Virus record (IMG/VR): IMGVR_UViG_3300027782_000035
Direction: 5' to 3' (one strand)
DNA: 64,000 nucleotides
Source: a virus
Shown here: positions 54,251 through 59,119 of the stretch, one piece after another
Layout: each line of letters begins with the position of its first letter
Position numbering within the stretch: position 1 is the first letter of the stretch
Translations under genes and position numbers: made by a program
Notes under the pieces: model-generated
Databases searched by the model: none
Told to the model about the DNA's origin: nothing
Seen by the model: the letters and a program-made list of their open reading frames with translations, nothing else

Positions 54251-54831
54251 TGGCAGACAAGAAACAAACCTTGCAAACGATTTTCGAAAAACATAAATTC
54301 GATCAATCGATTGCAACTCAATCTAAAACCTGGTTTCAGCAACAGACTTTGTTGCTCGCGCGCAAGAGAATAGATACTAATAAGTTATTCACGCAACAGA
54401 GAGTAGTTACCAAACTAGTTCCCGGCAAGCTTTATATGTTTTATTATGATCCCAAATACAAGAATGAATTACCATATTATGATAGGTTCCCTCTTGTATT
54501 TCCATATTCAGCTACTAAAGATGGATTCATGGGATTAAACATGCATTATTTATCGCCGTACCATCGAGTGTTTTTAATGACAAAATTAATGCAGTTCGCT
54601 AATAATAAAAACTTCGATGATACAACTAGAATAAAGTATTCATGGAATTTAATATCAGGCATGAGTAGATTTAAGTTAGCAGAACCATGCATAAAGCATT
54701 ACTTAAAACCTCATGTAAAATCAATGTTTATTGAAATCCCTGGAGATCAGTGGCATACTGCAATGATGTTACCACTAGAAAAATTTGTAGGAGCCAATAA
54801 GATGACAGTATTCGGAGACTCATTAACATGA
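54250..54831 (+). CDS. gp2: DNA end protector protein gp2
   Basis: PGKLYMFYYDPKYKNELPYYDRFPLV...GLNMHYL...CIKHYL. Confidence 0.9.
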   Translation: MADKKQTLQTIFEKHKFDQSIATQSKTWFQQQTLLLARKRIDTNKLFTQQRVVTKLVPGKLYMFYYDPKYKNELPYYDRFPLVFPYSATKDGFMGLNMHYLSPYHRVFLMTKLMQFANNKNFDDTTRIKYSWNLISGMSRFKLAEPCIKHYLKPHVKSMFIEIPGDQWHTAMMLPLEKFVGANKMTVFGDSLT

Positions 54832-55586
54832 ATCAATTAAACGATTTTATAGCCAATGTAAAACAGGGAATGGCTAAGACTAGCTATTTCACGGTTGAAC
54901 TGTTGCTGCCTTCAAAACTTGTCAATGAAAAACAACCAATTCGTGAAAACCTTAGAGCTATTCAACTATTTTGTGATCAAACACAATTGCCGGGGATATC
55001 ATTTGGTACAGCTCAGGTTAGATCACATGGAGAATTCAAAGAAGTTCCATATGAGAAATTATACGAAGCAGTTACTATGAATTTTTATGTAGATAAAGAA
55101 CTAAATGTCAAATACTTATTTGATTCTTGGATGGATATTATTCAAGATGGAACTAGTAGAACTTTTAGTTATCCAAATACTTATACGTCTGATAAGATGA
55201 GAATCATAGTAGAAGATACAGAAGGTCAAGGACGATACGAGGTTAACCTCTTTAGATGTTATCCTAAATCCATTGCACCTATTCAATTAGACTATTCTTC
55301 TAAAGATGTGATGAAACTTCAAGTTACTTTCACATATCAATATGCAACATATGAAAGACTAGCACAACAAGGCTCTGATTCTTCTTCTTCAATGGAAGGA
55401 ACCGCACGTCAGTTACCTAACTATAACTATGGATATCCTTCAGAAACAGTAATTCCCGATAATTACTTTACTGATTTTAGAGGATTCCAAGATGAGTTCA
55501 ACGACTTCTCACTCGATGGAGTTAGAACTACCGATTCCACTGAAAACATTGGAGTATTTACGGGCTTTGGTGGAATTTTTAGTTAA
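54828..55586 (+). CDS. gp54: Baseplate tail tube initiator gp54-like (gp19 fold)
   Basis: LFCDQTQLPG...VTMNFYVD...FDSWMD...YPKSIAPIQLDY...LQVTFTY. Confidence 0.7.
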   Translation: MNQLNDFIANVKQGMAKTSYFTVELLLPSKLVNEKQPIRENLRAIQLFCDQTQLPGISFGTAQVRSHGEFKEVPYEKLYEAVTMNFYVDKELNVKYLFDSWMDIIQDGTSRTFSYPNTYTSDKMRIIVEDTEGQGRYEVNLFRCYPKSIAPIQLDYSSKDVMKLQVTFTYQYATYERLAQQGSDSSSSMEGTARQLPNYNYGYPSETVIPDNYFTDFRGFQDEFNDFSLDGVRTTDSTENIGVFTGFGGIFS

Positions 55587-55598
55587 TGTGTAAAAATT

Positions 55599-56003
55599 AT
55601 GAATATAGATGATAAACTGAGTCAAGTGTTCGAGATAGAACCTATAATTAAAAGTGAAGTGATAACTCACCAAGATATTGTTACGCATAAGAATGATAAG
55701 CTAGAATCAGACTATGAGACTACTCGAACAAATTTGCATGTGCTATTAATACAAGGACAAGACGCATTAAATCACGCGTTAGAAGTTGCTAAGGCTAGTG
55801 AACATCCTCGAGCTTTCGAAGTTGTGGGAGGTCTAATGAAACACGTAGCTGATATAAACACACAGCTTTTAGATCTTCATAAGAAGAAGCAATCTATCGA
55901 AGCGCCTGATAAGAAAACGCAAACCACTACCAATAATTCTATCTTTGTTGGTAGTACAACTGAATTGAGCAAAATGCTTAATGATTTAAGAAAAGGAAAA
56001 TAA
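55599..56003 (+). CDS. gp16: Terminase small subunit gp16
   Basis: DYETTRTNL...GQDAL...A..SEHPRAFEV...LLDLHKK...NNSIFVGSTTEL.KML. Confidence 0.85.
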   Translation: MNIDDKLSQVFEIEPIIKSEVITHQDIVTHKNDKLESDYETTRTNLHVLLIQGQDALNHALEVAKASEHPRAFEVVGGLMKHVADINTQLLDLHKKKQSIEAPDKKTQTTTNNSIFVGSTTELSKMLNDLRKGK

Positions 56004-56004
56004 C

Positions 56005-56718
56005 ATGGCTTTACCAGTAATGTCACAAGTGACATATGAATTGACTATACCGTCTACTAAACAAAAAATAAAATATAGACCTTTCCTAGTTAAGGAACAA
56101 AAAGATTTATTAATTGCACAGCAGAGCGATGATGAAAAGGTAATGATTGAAACTCTTAAGAATATCATTCGTTCATGCACGCTAGATAAAGTTGAAGTTG
56201 ACAACTTGGCGATGTTCGATATTGAATATATCTTTACTCAGCTTAGAGCTAAGTCAGTAGGAGAGTATTCTGATCTTACGTTTAATTGCCTCGAGTGCAA
56301 TGACCCAAAAGCAAAGATGAATGTTAGTATTGATTTGACTACTCTAACGGTAGAGTTTAATGAAAAGCATAAATCAATTATTCCTCTTTTCGATACAGTA
56401 GGAATAAAGATGAAGTATCCGGGTTTGGCACTCTTTGATAAGATGAATAAACTCGAAGGTAATCAAGTGGATATGATATTCGATGTCATAATTGAATGTA
56501 TAGATTCGATATACGACGAAGATACTGTATATCCAGCGCATGAACAAAGCAGGGAAGAATTAGAAACGTTTATCAACAATTTAACACAGGATCAGTTTCA
56601 AAAAGTTCAAAACTTCTTTGAAACAATGCCTAAGCTAGAAAAAGAAATAGAATTTGATTGCCCAATGTGTAAATACCACCATCAACATGTTGTTCGAGGA
56701 TTAAGCGGTTTTTTTTAA
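56005..56718 (+). CDS. gp26: Baseplate hub assembly chaperone gp26
   Basis: MALP...YELTIPS...KYRPFLVKEQK.LL...FDIEYIF.QLRAKSVGE; two CxxC motifs; FFETMPKL...GLSGFF. Confidence 0.9.
   Translation: MALPVMSQVTYELTIPSTKQKIKYRPFLVKEQKDLLIAQQSDDEKVMIETLKNIIRSCTLDKVEVDNLAMFDIEYIFTQLRAKSVGEYSDLTFNCLECNDPKAKMNVSIDLTTLTVEFNEKHKSIIPLFDTVGIKMKYPGLALFDKMNKLEGNQVDMIFDVIIECIDSIYDEDTVYPAHEQSREELETFINNLTQDQFQKVQNFFETMPKLEKEIEFDCPMCKYHHQHVVRGLSGFF
56709..56715 (+). other. Candidate -1 ribosomal slippery heptamer T TTT TTT at the end of gp26
   Basis: GGT TTT TTT TAA; the -1 frame is open from here into gp51; SD-like GAGGA at 56696-56700. Confidence 0.6.
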
Positions 56719-56756
56719 TAGCTCTTTGTCATGATAACTTAGCAAACTATTATAAA

Positions 56757-56900
56757 ATGAATTTTGCGCTCATGCAGTATCATAAATATAGTTTGTATGA
56801 CATTGAGAGTATGTTACCATTTGAGCGCGAAATATATGTTGCAATGTTAATCAAATTCTTAGAAGAAGAAAAAGAAAGACTAGAAAGACAGAAAAGATGA
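56757..56900 (+). CDS. gp51: Baseplate hub assembly catalyst gp51-like; reading frame extends upstream through the T8 run at 56709
   Basis: Not in the ORF track. (FFLIALCHDNLANYYK)MNFALMQYHKYSLYDIESMLPFEREIYVAMLIKFLEEEKERLERQKR; its stop overlaps the next ATG. Confidence 0.8.
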   Translation: MNFALMQYHKYSLYDIESMLPFEREIYVAMLIKFLEEEKERLERQKR

Positions 56901-59119
56901 AAACAGTCATAAGCAAGCAAAATGTACAAGAAGCTTCGAGCGCAAGCGTGCTGAAGGCTGAAGAAGTCGCTAAAAAATCTAGTGATCACATAGAAGCGGT
57001 TAATGTCACTCTGAAAAAAGGTCTTATTGAAGACAACGGAACTAGTTTAAATTCAAACGTATATAAGCTCTTTAAGGAAGTAGAAAAACAAACTAAGATT
57101 ATTAAAGAGAACAAAGATAAAGCGCCAACTATAGGCGCTGCAAAGGCTGAAGATATTACTAAAAAGTCTATGGGCCTGGAACAGTTCAAGACTATCGGCG
57201 AAAGAATGAGCGATTTCGGTAAAGGATTTAAAGACTTCTTTACAGTTAAGGGCTTCTTAAATAAGACTGGAATAGTCGATAAAGATAGTACCGGCATTGT
57301 TGGCACGGCCGTGAATCGCCGAGCTGCTAAGAAACAATACGTCGAAGATAGAATGAAAGTAGATCCTAACTACTTGAATCTTGCTAAAGGAAGTACTGAG
57401 AAAGAAAAGAAAGCTAACGCAAGAAAAACTTTCGAAAATCAATTTGATAAACAGCAGGAAATCAAAAAGCAACAAAGACAAAATGAAGGCGAAATATCTA
57501 GTCTTCAGAAAAGTGGTTATACTGAACAACAGATTAAAAGAAGTGGACTTTTAAAAACAAGAGAAGGTCTTGCTGAAAAACTTACTGCAGTAGATTCTAG
57601 AGTTCGTGACAATGCAGGTAGCGGAAATACCAAGAAAGACCTTGAAGTAGAATCTAAGAAAAAGCAGAAGACTACTGATACCATAAAAGAAGCTATGGAG
57701 TTTTCTGATGAAGGCCAAATAGAAGCTCAACGTAATTCAGAAACTCAGACTGCACTGCTAGCAAAGATCGAAGAAAACACTCGCTCTCTCCTAGGAAACC
57801 GTCGCGCATCATCAGCTGGCAAAGCCGATACCGGCGACAGCGGCGGTGGATTGCTTGATACTATTATGGGATTCCTTGGCCAAGGATTTATGACAGCGAT
57901 CAAGTTCTTGTTCAATCCTAAGAACTTGCTAAAAGCCTTTACTAGATTCCTAGCGCCTGCACTCATAATAGGCGCACTAGTAAATGGAATAATGGATGGC
58001 TTTAATAAATTCATGGAGACTGGCGATATTGGAGAAGCTCTTATTGCAGGTCTTGGTGGAATACTATCGTTCCTAACATTTGGGTTGTTTGATGCAGACA
58101 CTATTAGTTCGCTCGTAGACTGGTTCAGTAGCTTCGTTACTGACTTTATCATACAACCAGTTAAAGATTTCTTTGGATTTCTAGGTGATTCTTTTGACAA
58201 GTACATCGCTCAACCAATTATGGGAGCATTTAGTTCTATTAAAGATATAATGGGAACTCTCCTTGATGCTTATCTATGGTTACCGAGAAAAGTACTAGGA
58301 CTAATTGATGAATATATTGTAACTCCACTTAAAGAAGTATTTGCACCAGTGACAGATTTCTTTAAGAAAATTAAAGATCAGATATTTGGTTTCCTAGAAG
58401 ATTTTGGTATACCTGAAATTGGTTTCACTATTCCTATTATTGGCAAGAAAGTTTCTATCGGTCCGTTCTATCCATTCCGACCAAATGAAGGGACTGCAAA
58501 TGTTGGTGGTGGTACAGAATTATCTCAGACCTCTAGCGCAAGCGGAGAGACAGAGACATTTAGAAATAGTGTAGTTTCTACTGAAAAAGACGCTTCTTCA
58601 GTATTAGTTACCAATGAAAAAAGTTCTATTAATGCAAAGGGCGAATCTAAAACTGAATTTGGTGAGTCATTTGCACGATTTGATGTTAAAACTGGAAAAG
58701 CTTTATACTCTCCTGGCGCTGGAGGTGAAGCTGTTGATATCTCGGCTTCTACATTTAGAAAAGTAAAGTCAGCAGCAAAAGATGGTGCTGATACTGCTAA
58801 ATTAGATGAGATAGTAAAAGAAGACAAAGCGTATGAACAACTAAGCTTTTGGGATAAGCGCAAAGTTGATGTTGGATACGTTAAAGCATCTGATCTATTA
58901 GCAGCACAGCAAGGTACTGGAAAGTCAGATGTAGTATACAATAAGTCTTCTGATAACGCAGCGGCTGCAGCCGCACCTCCTCCTGCTATGGCACCAGTCG
59001 TTGTCAATGCACCAACTAATGTAAGCAATAGTAGACAAAATATAGCAATGCCTCAAGCTATACGTAATCCTGATAACGGATTTAATAAGTACGCTGGCTC
59101 GCGCGCAGTAATGCTATAA
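56897..59119 (+). CDS. Tape-measure-like protein (gp29 analogue)
   Basis: Long helical Lys/Glu-rich N-terminus, central hydrophobic/amphipathic F-spaced repeats, C-terminal PVVVNAPT; follows gp26/gp51. Confidence 0.65.
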   Translation: MKTVISKQNVQEASSASVLKAEEVAKKSSDHIEAVNVTLKKGLIEDNGTSLNSNVYKLFKEVEKQTKIIKENKDKAPTIGAAKAEDITKKSMGLEQFKTIGERMSDFGKGFKDFFTVKGFLNKTGIVDKDSTGIVGTAVNRRAAKKQYVEDRMKVDPNYLNLAKGSTEKEKKANARKTFENQFDKQQEIKKQQRQNEGEISSLQKSGYTEQQIKRSGLLKTREGLAEKLTAVDSRVRDNAGSGNTKKDLEVESKKKQKTTDTIKEAMEFSDEGQIEAQRNSETQTALLAKIEENTRSLLGNRRASSAGKADTGDSGGGLLDTIMGFLGQGFMTAIKFLFNPKNLLKAFTRFLAPALIIGALVNGIMDGFNKFMETGDIGEALIAGLGGILSFLTFGLFDADTISSLVDWFSSFVTDFIIQPVKDFFGFLGDSFDKYIAQPIMGAFSSIKDIMGTLLDAYLWLPRKVLGLIDEYIVTPLKEVFAPVTDFFKKIKDQIFGFLEDFGIPEIGFTIPIIGKKVSIGPFYPFRPNEGTANVGGGTELSQTSSASGETETFRNSVVSTEKDASSVLVTNEKSSINAKGESKTEFGESFARFDVKTGKALYSPGAGGEAVDISASTFRKVKSAAKDGADTAKLDEIVKEDKAYEQLSFWDKRKVDVGYVKASDLLAAQQGTGKSDVVYNKSSDNAAAAAAPPPAMAPVVVNAPTNVSNSRQNIAMPQAIRNPDNGFNKYAGSRAVML

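Follow-up and report, generated by a model that had tools for sequence, protein, structure and literature searches.

The 64-kb window, i.e., the whole stretch of viral DNA that was analysed, carries a gp26-like gene that ends in a run of eight T residues directly before its stop codon, and a gp51-like reading frame lies in the -1 frame across the same run. The question raised by this locus is whether one gene gives rise to two proteins through a programmed shift of the ribosome, or whether the second frame is expressed in some other way. A tblastn search with the gp26-like protein gave matches in 1455 phage records, the best of them in cyanophages (44% identity), Pelagibacter phage Mosig (38%) and Pseudomonas phage pf16 (35%), and no DNA nearly identical to the window was found in the phage collection, which indicates that the window belongs to an uncultured T4-like phage. 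Based on the anatomy of the junction and on its comparison among relatives, we consider it highly likely that a programmed -1 frameshift in the gp26-like gene produces a chaperone pair of the G/GT kind, with a short and a long form.

According to the proposed mechanism, most ribosomes would read GGT TTT TTT and stop at the TAA, thereby releasing a 237-aa protein, while a minority would slip into the -1 frame on T TTT TTT (56709-56715), either by tandem slippage of two tRNA-Phe or by slippage of the P-site tRNA with the stop codon in the A site. The slipped ribosomes would translate 61 more codons in the -1 frame, giving a 298-aa protein with the gp51-specific helical domain. The two products would be the equivalents of T4 gp26 (short) and T4 gp51 (long); at the initiation of hub and tube, the body that both share would handle the tape measure, with the rare long form contributing a recruiting domain. 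The comparison of sequences suggests that, very probably, one gene yields both the 237- and the 298-residue protein. The occurrence of the shift, its efficiency, a fixed ratio of the two products and their binding partners are what we infer.

Anatomy of the junction

The following features were located at the junction:

56005-56718, + strand: gp26-like ORF, 0-frame product (putative short chaperone form), with a TAC-like N-domain (approximately residues 1-94) and a Cys4-containing body
56696-56700, + strand: SD-like GAGGA, a possible stimulator that is not diagnostic, 8 nt 5' of the heptamer; duplex with the anti-SD -5.9 kcal/mol
56709-56716, + strand: T8 run
56709-56715, + strand: slippery heptamer T TTT TTT, proposed site of the -1 shift; X XXY YYZ in the phase of the 0 frame (GGT TTT TTT)
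56716-56718, + strand: 0-frame stop TAA, abutting the heptamer
56715-56900, + strand: -1 frame extension, gp51-specific helical C-domain, 61 codons and TGA
56757-56759, + strand: ATG at Met17 of the domain; the -1 frame has no other canonical start, and this one is not conserved as such

The gp26-like ORF encodes 237 aa and its 3' end reads CGA GGA TTA AGC GGT TTT TTT TAA. The -1 frame opens at 56673 and closes with the TGA at 56898-56900; it overlaps the gp26-like ORF by 14 codons and reads ..FFLIALCHDNLANYYKMNFALMQ..., and the conceptual fusion is 237 + 61 = 298 aa long. The sequence-only reading of this locus had described a gp26 end of GGT TTT TTT TAA in which T TTT TTT fits X XXY YYZ (found at 56709-56718), a gp51-like frame that is exactly -1 and open across the T run (56673-56900), a GAGGA 8 nt 5' of the heptamer, an only -1-frame ATG at 56757 that lacks an SD (anti-SD pairing +1.3 kcal/mol) and conceptual products of 237 and about 298 aa; all of these sequence features proved to be correct. 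The window contains three T8 runs compared with 9.1 that were expected from shuffled sequences, and such runs are, if anything, avoided. The T8 run by itself is within chance, and its significance therefore rests on the comparison among relatives.

Predicted products of the two frames

The 0-frame product matched PF12322 (T4_baseplate) over residues 10-237 with an E value of 3.5e-65 and 220 bits (cut-off 24.5 bits), and phrog_150 with an E value of 9e-69. The -1 frame translation matched phrog_634, the baseplate hub assembly catalyst gp51, with an E value of 3.7e-27; the match covered residues 10-74 of the stop-to-stop frame and positions 52-116 of the 121 in the profile, and it began 19 residues upstream of the Met at ATG 56757. 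This piece had a further match in the gp26 profile phrog_150, at positions 228-278 of 282, where that profile has its C-terminal end. Every one of the 120 protein clusters closest to the 0-frame product was 230-238 aa long, so that they contain no read-through variants. A search among the close relatives for long proteins that bear the C-domain found none, which is weak evidence.

Conservation of the frame and the slippery run

The comparison set comprised 80 IMG/VR loci at 40-96% identity and the annotated regions of cultured phages. The gp51 domain lay in the -1 frame in 83 of the 83 loci that had both parts (IMG/VR relatives, 40-96% identity), and the same signal was found in cultured phages of nine lineages, namely S-CREM1, Pelagibacter phage Mosig, S-RIM8, pf16, Yut2, X1, phi-Grn1, AsFcp_4 and RHph_Y68. 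It spans Kyanoviridae, Chakrabartyvirus (pf16), Schizotequatrovirus (phi-Grn1), Angelvirus (AsFcp_4) and Menderavirus (Yut2), and is also present in Xanthomonas phage X1 and in a Pootjesviridae phage, in which TTTTTTG is combined with a TGATG start. The loci collapsed to 65 unique junctions from relatives that are not phylogenetically independent. Within this related set, an in-phase T TTT TTN heptamer was found at all 65 unique junctions, as TTTTTTC in 38, TTTTTTT in 24, TTTTTTA in two and TTTTTTG in one. The codon before the Phe-Phe was NNT in all 65, with five types being used (AGT, TCT, AAT, GGT and GAT), and the 0-frame stop followed the heptamer by 0-1 codons in 64 of them. The GC-rich phages X1, Yut2 and pf16 retain GAT TTT TTY. 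The point at which the -1 frame opens varied from 0 to 25 codons upstream across the unique junctions, and in 11 of them a -1 frame stop is located immediately 5' of the heptamer, which means that the two frames can be joined only there.

The conservation of the protein changes frame at the heptamer as well: it follows ..G-L-x-x-F-F in the 0 frame and then F-F-x-I/L-x-L-x-H..N-Y-Y in the -1 frame. Over the 14 codons from the shift site to the Met, 7508, 5741 and 11411 pairwise differences were counted at the first, second and third -1-frame codon positions, respectively, and this third-position excess is the same coding signature that characterises the remainder of the domain. The sequence-only reading had proposed that homologues would keep the slippery run and a fixed -1 relation, and that their protein sequence would already be conserved 5' of the first Met. 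The comparison bears this out, with the -1 frame fixed in the 83 loci and in the cultured phages, the run being kept, N13 invariant and Y15 at least 90% conserved. Neither random frame relationships nor a conserved SD with its own ATG, named beforehand as signs against a shift, were seen; the frame is fixed and the ATG is limited to a clade.

There are exceptions. In Vibrio phage K447 and Ackermannviridae phage VAP7 there is no T6 run, and the small ORF starts at a TAATG overlap, which indicates that the fusion is not obligatory in every relative. Klebsiella phage Madison has neither the T-run nor a start for the small ORF. Evidently, there are also other ways of supplying the C-domain, a separate peptide being one of them. 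The annotation in GenBank reflects none of the proposed fusions: the small ORF was annotated separately, and the two ORFs were joined in none of the 16 records that were inspected.

Sequence elements around the heptamer

No conserved RNA structure was found downstream of the heptamer, since RNAalifold predicted 0 pairs for 22 diverse junctions and two pairs for 21 junctions of the window's clade, with no covariation in either set. The idea of a conserved downstream stimulator was dropped because of this result. In the window alone, a hairpin that starts 5 nt past the heptamer was predicted (-23.2 kcal/mol, z -2.78); it is common only to the close relatives and has no covariation support.

Upstream, an SD-like purine motif is positioned 8-9 nt before the heptamer in 63 of the 65 junctions. 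Pairing with the anti-SD at -4 kcal/mol or below was found at 63 of the 65 junctions compared with 11% of the control windows, with medians of -6.8 and -0.9 kcal/mol, respectively. The non-shifting T4-type gp26 genes, however, have an SD-like motif at the same place with pairing of -5.8 to -7.5 kcal/mol, where it is present because it encodes the conserved R/K-G-L. The GAGGA was rejected as a diagnostic sign of a selected stimulator, since T4-type genes without the T-run keep an equally strong motif; the internal SD of the earlier proposal may help the shift, without being evidence of selection for it. What is conserved in the signal is the heptamer in its phase and the stop next to it. With only these two, the efficiency of the shift may be low.

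Alternatives to a ribosomal shift

The 298-aa protein could also be made by transcriptional slippage, in which RNA polymerase would add one U on the T8 run and the edited mRNA would be translated without any shift. The product would be identical, and the RNAalifold analysis revealed no downstream RNA stimulator that would point to ribosomal shifting. Furthermore, T8, as found in the window and its nearest clade, is the longest run in the family, and bacterial RNA polymerases start to slip on runs of about this length. The distribution of run lengths argues in the other direction: 38 of the 65 junctions have only T6 (T TTT TTC) and two have T TTT TTA, which is too short for efficient polymerase slippage. 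The conserved phase of the heptamer, with its preceding NNT, matters for tRNA re-pairing and not for the polymerase. We therefore rate transcriptional slippage as improbable, with a minor added contribution being possible in the T8 clade. Because most of the relatives have only T6, ribosomal slippage is predicted to be the mechanism that the family shares.

A second alternative is that there is no fusion at all and that a separate 47-aa gp51-like peptide is made from ATG 56757 by weak initiation or re-initiation, with the T-run being nothing else than AT-rich coding of Phe-Phe. The ATG is conserved in the window's own clade, the small ORF is an entry of its own in the GenBank records, and in K447, VAP7 and RHph_Y68 its start overlaps the gp26 stop (TAATG or TGATG), which suggests a free-standing small protein in some lineages. 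Against this, the ATG is located 39 nt beyond the 0-frame stop and has no SD; the pairing of the 17 nt upstream of it with the anti-SD (+1.3 kcal/mol) is worse than the 90th percentile (+0.84) of the 44 ORF starts in the window. It is kept only in the window's own clade. Elsewhere, position 17 of the domain is V, T, N or G, which are not start codons, and the first ATG falls within the NFALMQ motif, with the position of the first -1-frame ATG varying from 3 to 28 codons. Conservation at the protein level, together with the coding substitution pattern, extends over the 16 residues that precede the Met; N13 is invariant there, and the conservation of L6 and Y15 reaches at least 90%. In the AF2 model of the C-domain (63 residues, pLDDT 85.5), helices were predicted at residues 2-7, 11-24, 29-32 and 37-62, and because Met17 lies inside the second of these, initiation there would cut a helix. 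The starts annotated in the relatives are inconsistent (TTG, GTG or none, with AsFcp_4 and Madison having no annotated ORF), the GC-rich X1, Yut2 and pf16 still carry GAT TTT TTY, and T4-type gp51 is colinear with the fusion. An account without any fusion is therefore even less probable than polymerase slippage; some independent initiation of the 47-aa peptide in the window's clade is possible.

Least credible, to the point of being nearly negligible, is that the split reflects a sequencing or assembly error (a true run of T9) or a pseudogene in which an indel divided one 298-aa gene: homopolymer runs are prone to errors, but the same T8 and TAA recur in five independent metagenome contigs (L005-L009, 73-96% protein identity), which excludes an assembly error for the junction, all 65 unique junctions are split alike with differing run lengths, this split also occurs in cultured, finished genomes, none of the 120 closest protein clusters falls outside a length of 230-238 aa and, as weaker evidence, no long C-domain protein was found among the close relatives.

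Fold of the body and neighbouring genes

The reading that we favour would place the gp26-like gene among the tail assembly chaperones (TACs), and the predicted fold is consistent with this. The AF2 model of the 237-aa body had a pLDDT of 84.7 and a pTM of 0.79. A VIA-align comparison with 48,161 chains placed 3fgx (Z 7.7; rmsd 3.8, 85 aligned), 3klu/YqbN (Z 6.9) and 2ob9, the HK97 TAC (Z 6.8; rmsd 4.2, 84 aligned), at the top, with the matches falling in residues 1-94 of the model and the next row having a Z of 4.8; Z values of 7-8 are in the middling range and can be reached by a common arrangement alone. All three of these structures are phage tail assembly chaperones (PMC9603447). The model thus provides support for, rather than proof of, a TAC-like fold in the N-terminal ~90 residues. 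A Foldseek search of the PDB with the body model returned nothing significant, with 2ob9 as the only match (E 2.3), and sequence profiles of both domains had no match in the PDB. A complex prediction for the C-domain and the tube-fold protein that is encoded upstream scored 0.00 in a run without controls, which argues neither for nor against binding.

Two neighbouring genes define the position of the junction:

54828-55586, + strand: tube-fold protein (gp54-like tail tube initiator), 252 aa; match to phrog_45 tail tube, E 1.5e-31
56897-59119, + strand: probable tape measure (gp29 analogue), 740 aa; its ATG overlaps the -1 frame stop (ATGA, 56897-56900)

The tube-fold protein scored 26.9 bits against PF23849 (Phage_TTP_2), slightly under the cut-off of 27 bits, and the gene at this position in the relatives is annotated as a baseplate tail tube initiator or a tail tube protein. 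In this phage, a small-terminase-like ORF is located between the tube-fold gene and the gp26-like gene. The 740-aa ORF is probably the tape measure. Its neighbours in the ESM Atlas were a 'Tail length tape measure protein' (0.95) and the PF25671 T4_Tape_measure cluster (0.93), which we treat as a lead only, and the syntenic downstream gene in S-CREM1, pf16 and phi-Grn1 matched tape-measure PHROGs. The protein itself gave nothing usable against Pfam and PHROGs even at an E value of 10 and no match by tblastn, and Pfam had no match for the downstream genes of seven relatives. The ESM lead and the syntenic PHROG matches agree with the earlier statement that the junction is positioned just before the tape-measure gene, as the 740-aa ORF lies directly downstream. 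That statement was part of the proposal that gp26/gp51 is the T4-superfamily counterpart of G/GT, which gains support from the TAC-like fold of the N-domain and from this tape-measure-like gene.

T4 gp26 and gp51 as counterparts

Both T4 proteins, gp26 (208 aa) and gp51 (249 aa), appear in the T4 literature as chaperones of hub assembly, and the T4 particle does not contain gp51 (Leiman et al. 2010, PMC3004832). In the T4-type phage PP01, genes 26 and 51 adjoin and are divergently transcribed, and the two proteins share approximately 20% identity. The T4-type gp51 (249 aa) matched the whole PF12322 profile (E 4e-55) and, with residues 147-246, phrog_634 (E 8e-24). The T4-type gp26 (208 aa) matched PF12322 alone and has the C-terminal end ..RGLKEFFELL. 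An HMM that was built from 64 conceptual -1 fusions aligned the T4-type gp51 as a single domain (hmm 23-282) that was gapless through the junction, and the T4-type gp26 over hmm 10-239, ending two residues past the FF. One copy of PF12322 was found in each of the complete genomes of S-CREM1, Mosig, pf16 and phi-Grn1, and two copies in PP01. Four Tevenvirinae genera encode the same Phe-Phe as TTC TTT after GAR and have no slippery run.

The window's 0-frame product thus resembles the T4-type gp26 in its membership of PF12322/phrog_150 and in the common end ..R/K-G-L-x-x-F-F, and its conceptual long form is colinear with the T4-type gp51, i.e., a PF12322 body followed by the phrog_634 C-domain. 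They differ in that the T4-type phages have two diverged genes, while the window would have one gene and a -1 shift, with identical bodies in both products. Judged by these alignments, T4 gp26 and gp51 are the counterparts of the predicted short and long products, respectively. This modifies the sequence-only reading, in which gp51 was equated with the small downstream piece: the piece is indeed the gp51-specific domain, but T4 gp51 is a complete gp26 paralogue plus this piece, and it therefore equals the whole frameshift product. The T4-type phages would have swapped recoding for a duplicated gene, or the reverse; the direction could be either.

Relation to known frameshift systems

A conserved -1 frameshift is well established for the genes of tail assembly chaperones (Levin 1993; Xu 2004, 2013 and 2014; all as summarised in PMC5009743), and the G-T frameshift was described as conserved in long-tailed phages 'except T4' in the review by Atkins et al. 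(2016, PMC5009743). The position of the gene, the TAC-like fold of the N-domain and the chaperone literature on T4 gp26 and gp51 make it most likely, by analogy, that the two forms function as lambda gpG/gpGT or P2 E/E+E' do. The hallmark of a G/GT-type pair is a short form that attaches to the tape measure and a long form whose extension attaches to the tube protein, with both missing from the virion. [quoted passage not shown] P2 also uses a T-rich heptamer, TTTTTTG. In contrast to G/GT, the window's protein has no detectable sequence similarity to the G/GT families, and it is approximately twice the size of a typical TAC, with an extra Cys4-containing body. The tau/gamma shift of E. coli dnaX is similar in its homopolymeric heptamer and its upstream SD-like element approximately 8-10 nt away; dnaX, however, has a strong downstream stem-loop, whereas the window's family has no conserved one, and the SD-like motif of the window also occurs in non-shifting T4-type genes.

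A full-text literature search, which had most subscription journals outside its reach, found no report of a gp26/gp51 frameshift. The locus is the first candidate, as identified by sequence comparison, for a member of the known class of tail-chaperone -1 frameshifts in the T4 superfamily. The tail assembly chaperone frameshift is among the most widely conserved recoding events in viruses and, if our reading is true, the T4 superfamily would be no exception to it. The frameshift would be used by most of the T4-superfamily lineages, including cyanophages, pelagiphages, KVP40-like phages and phages of Aeromonas, Pseudomonas, Stenotrophomonas, Xanthomonas and Rhizobium. It would also give gp26 and gp51 a concrete mechanistic model, that of G and GT, and predict a stoichiometry-sensitive step in hub and tube initiation. 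Moreover, this reading would correct how the small ORF is annotated in over a thousand phage genomes, where its start is arbitrary or the ORF was not called.

The start of the probable tape measure gene

The frameshift might set not only the ratio of the short to the long chaperone but also the dose of the tape measure, via re-initiation at the ATGA; we regard this as doubtful, with a modest chance of being correct. The ribosomes that terminate at the -1 frame stop would be mainly the shifted ones, and these could re-initiate on the tape measure, in which case one recoding event would tie two low-copy proteins together. An SD is nearly lacking before the tape-measure-like ORF (-0.9 kcal/mol), and in 57 of the 62 unique loci this ORF starts between -5 and +15 nt relative to the -1 frame stop.

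Discussion

The heptamer at the end of the gp26-like ORF and the start of the probable tape-measure gene are associated with the following features.

56721-56810: local RNA hairpin (MFE -23.2 kcal/mol, z -2.78)
56897-56900: ATGA, in which the -1 frame stop (TGA) overlaps the start codon (ATG) of a tape-measure-like ORF of 740 aa

The hairpin begins 5 nt 3' of the heptamer in the window, and in its outer stem the ALCH codons are paired with the YDIE codons. It is common to the window and its closest relatives; across the wider clade, neither conservation nor covariation of this hairpin was found. The Shine-Dalgarno sequence of the 740-aa ORF itself is very weak (-0.9 kcal/mol), and in 57 of the 62 unique relatives a long downstream ORF starts -5 to +15 nt from the -1 frame stop. 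Translation of the tape measure could be coupled to the shifted ribosomes.

The T6 run is missing from Vibrio phages K447 and VAP7 and from Klebsiella phage Madison. In both Vibrio phages, the gp26 stop overlaps the start of the gp51-like ORF as TAATG; the small ORF that is annotated in the K447 record is a different one and is probably spurious. The gp51-like frame of Madison, which is not annotated in its record, has neither a start nor a slippery heptamer.

The chaperone-like protein and its upstream neighbour were characterised by two further features.

56005-56718 (+): gp26-like ORF with four conserved cysteines in two CxxC pairs (residues about 95-98 and 219-222)
55599-56003: ORF of 134 aa with hits to families of the small terminase subunit (phrog_445, E 2.8e-43; PF11053, E 8e-13)

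C95 is invariant, while C219 and C222 are at least 90% conserved. The arrangement of the four cysteines in CxxC pairs suggests a putative zinc ribbon that clamps the chaperone body, and these pairs account for the name "rubrerythrin" that homologues carry in some JGI records.

In the window the small-terminase-like gene lies in the middle of the tail module, flanked by the tube-fold and gp26-like genes; in Mosig, S-CREM1, pf16 and phi-Grn1 this position holds no gene at all.

Residues 32-141 of the T4-type gp26 of phage PP01 weakly matched phrog_1140 (E 9e-4), the "baseplate hub distal subunit" family (gp28), and gp28 may be a third paralogue in the gp26/gp51 family.
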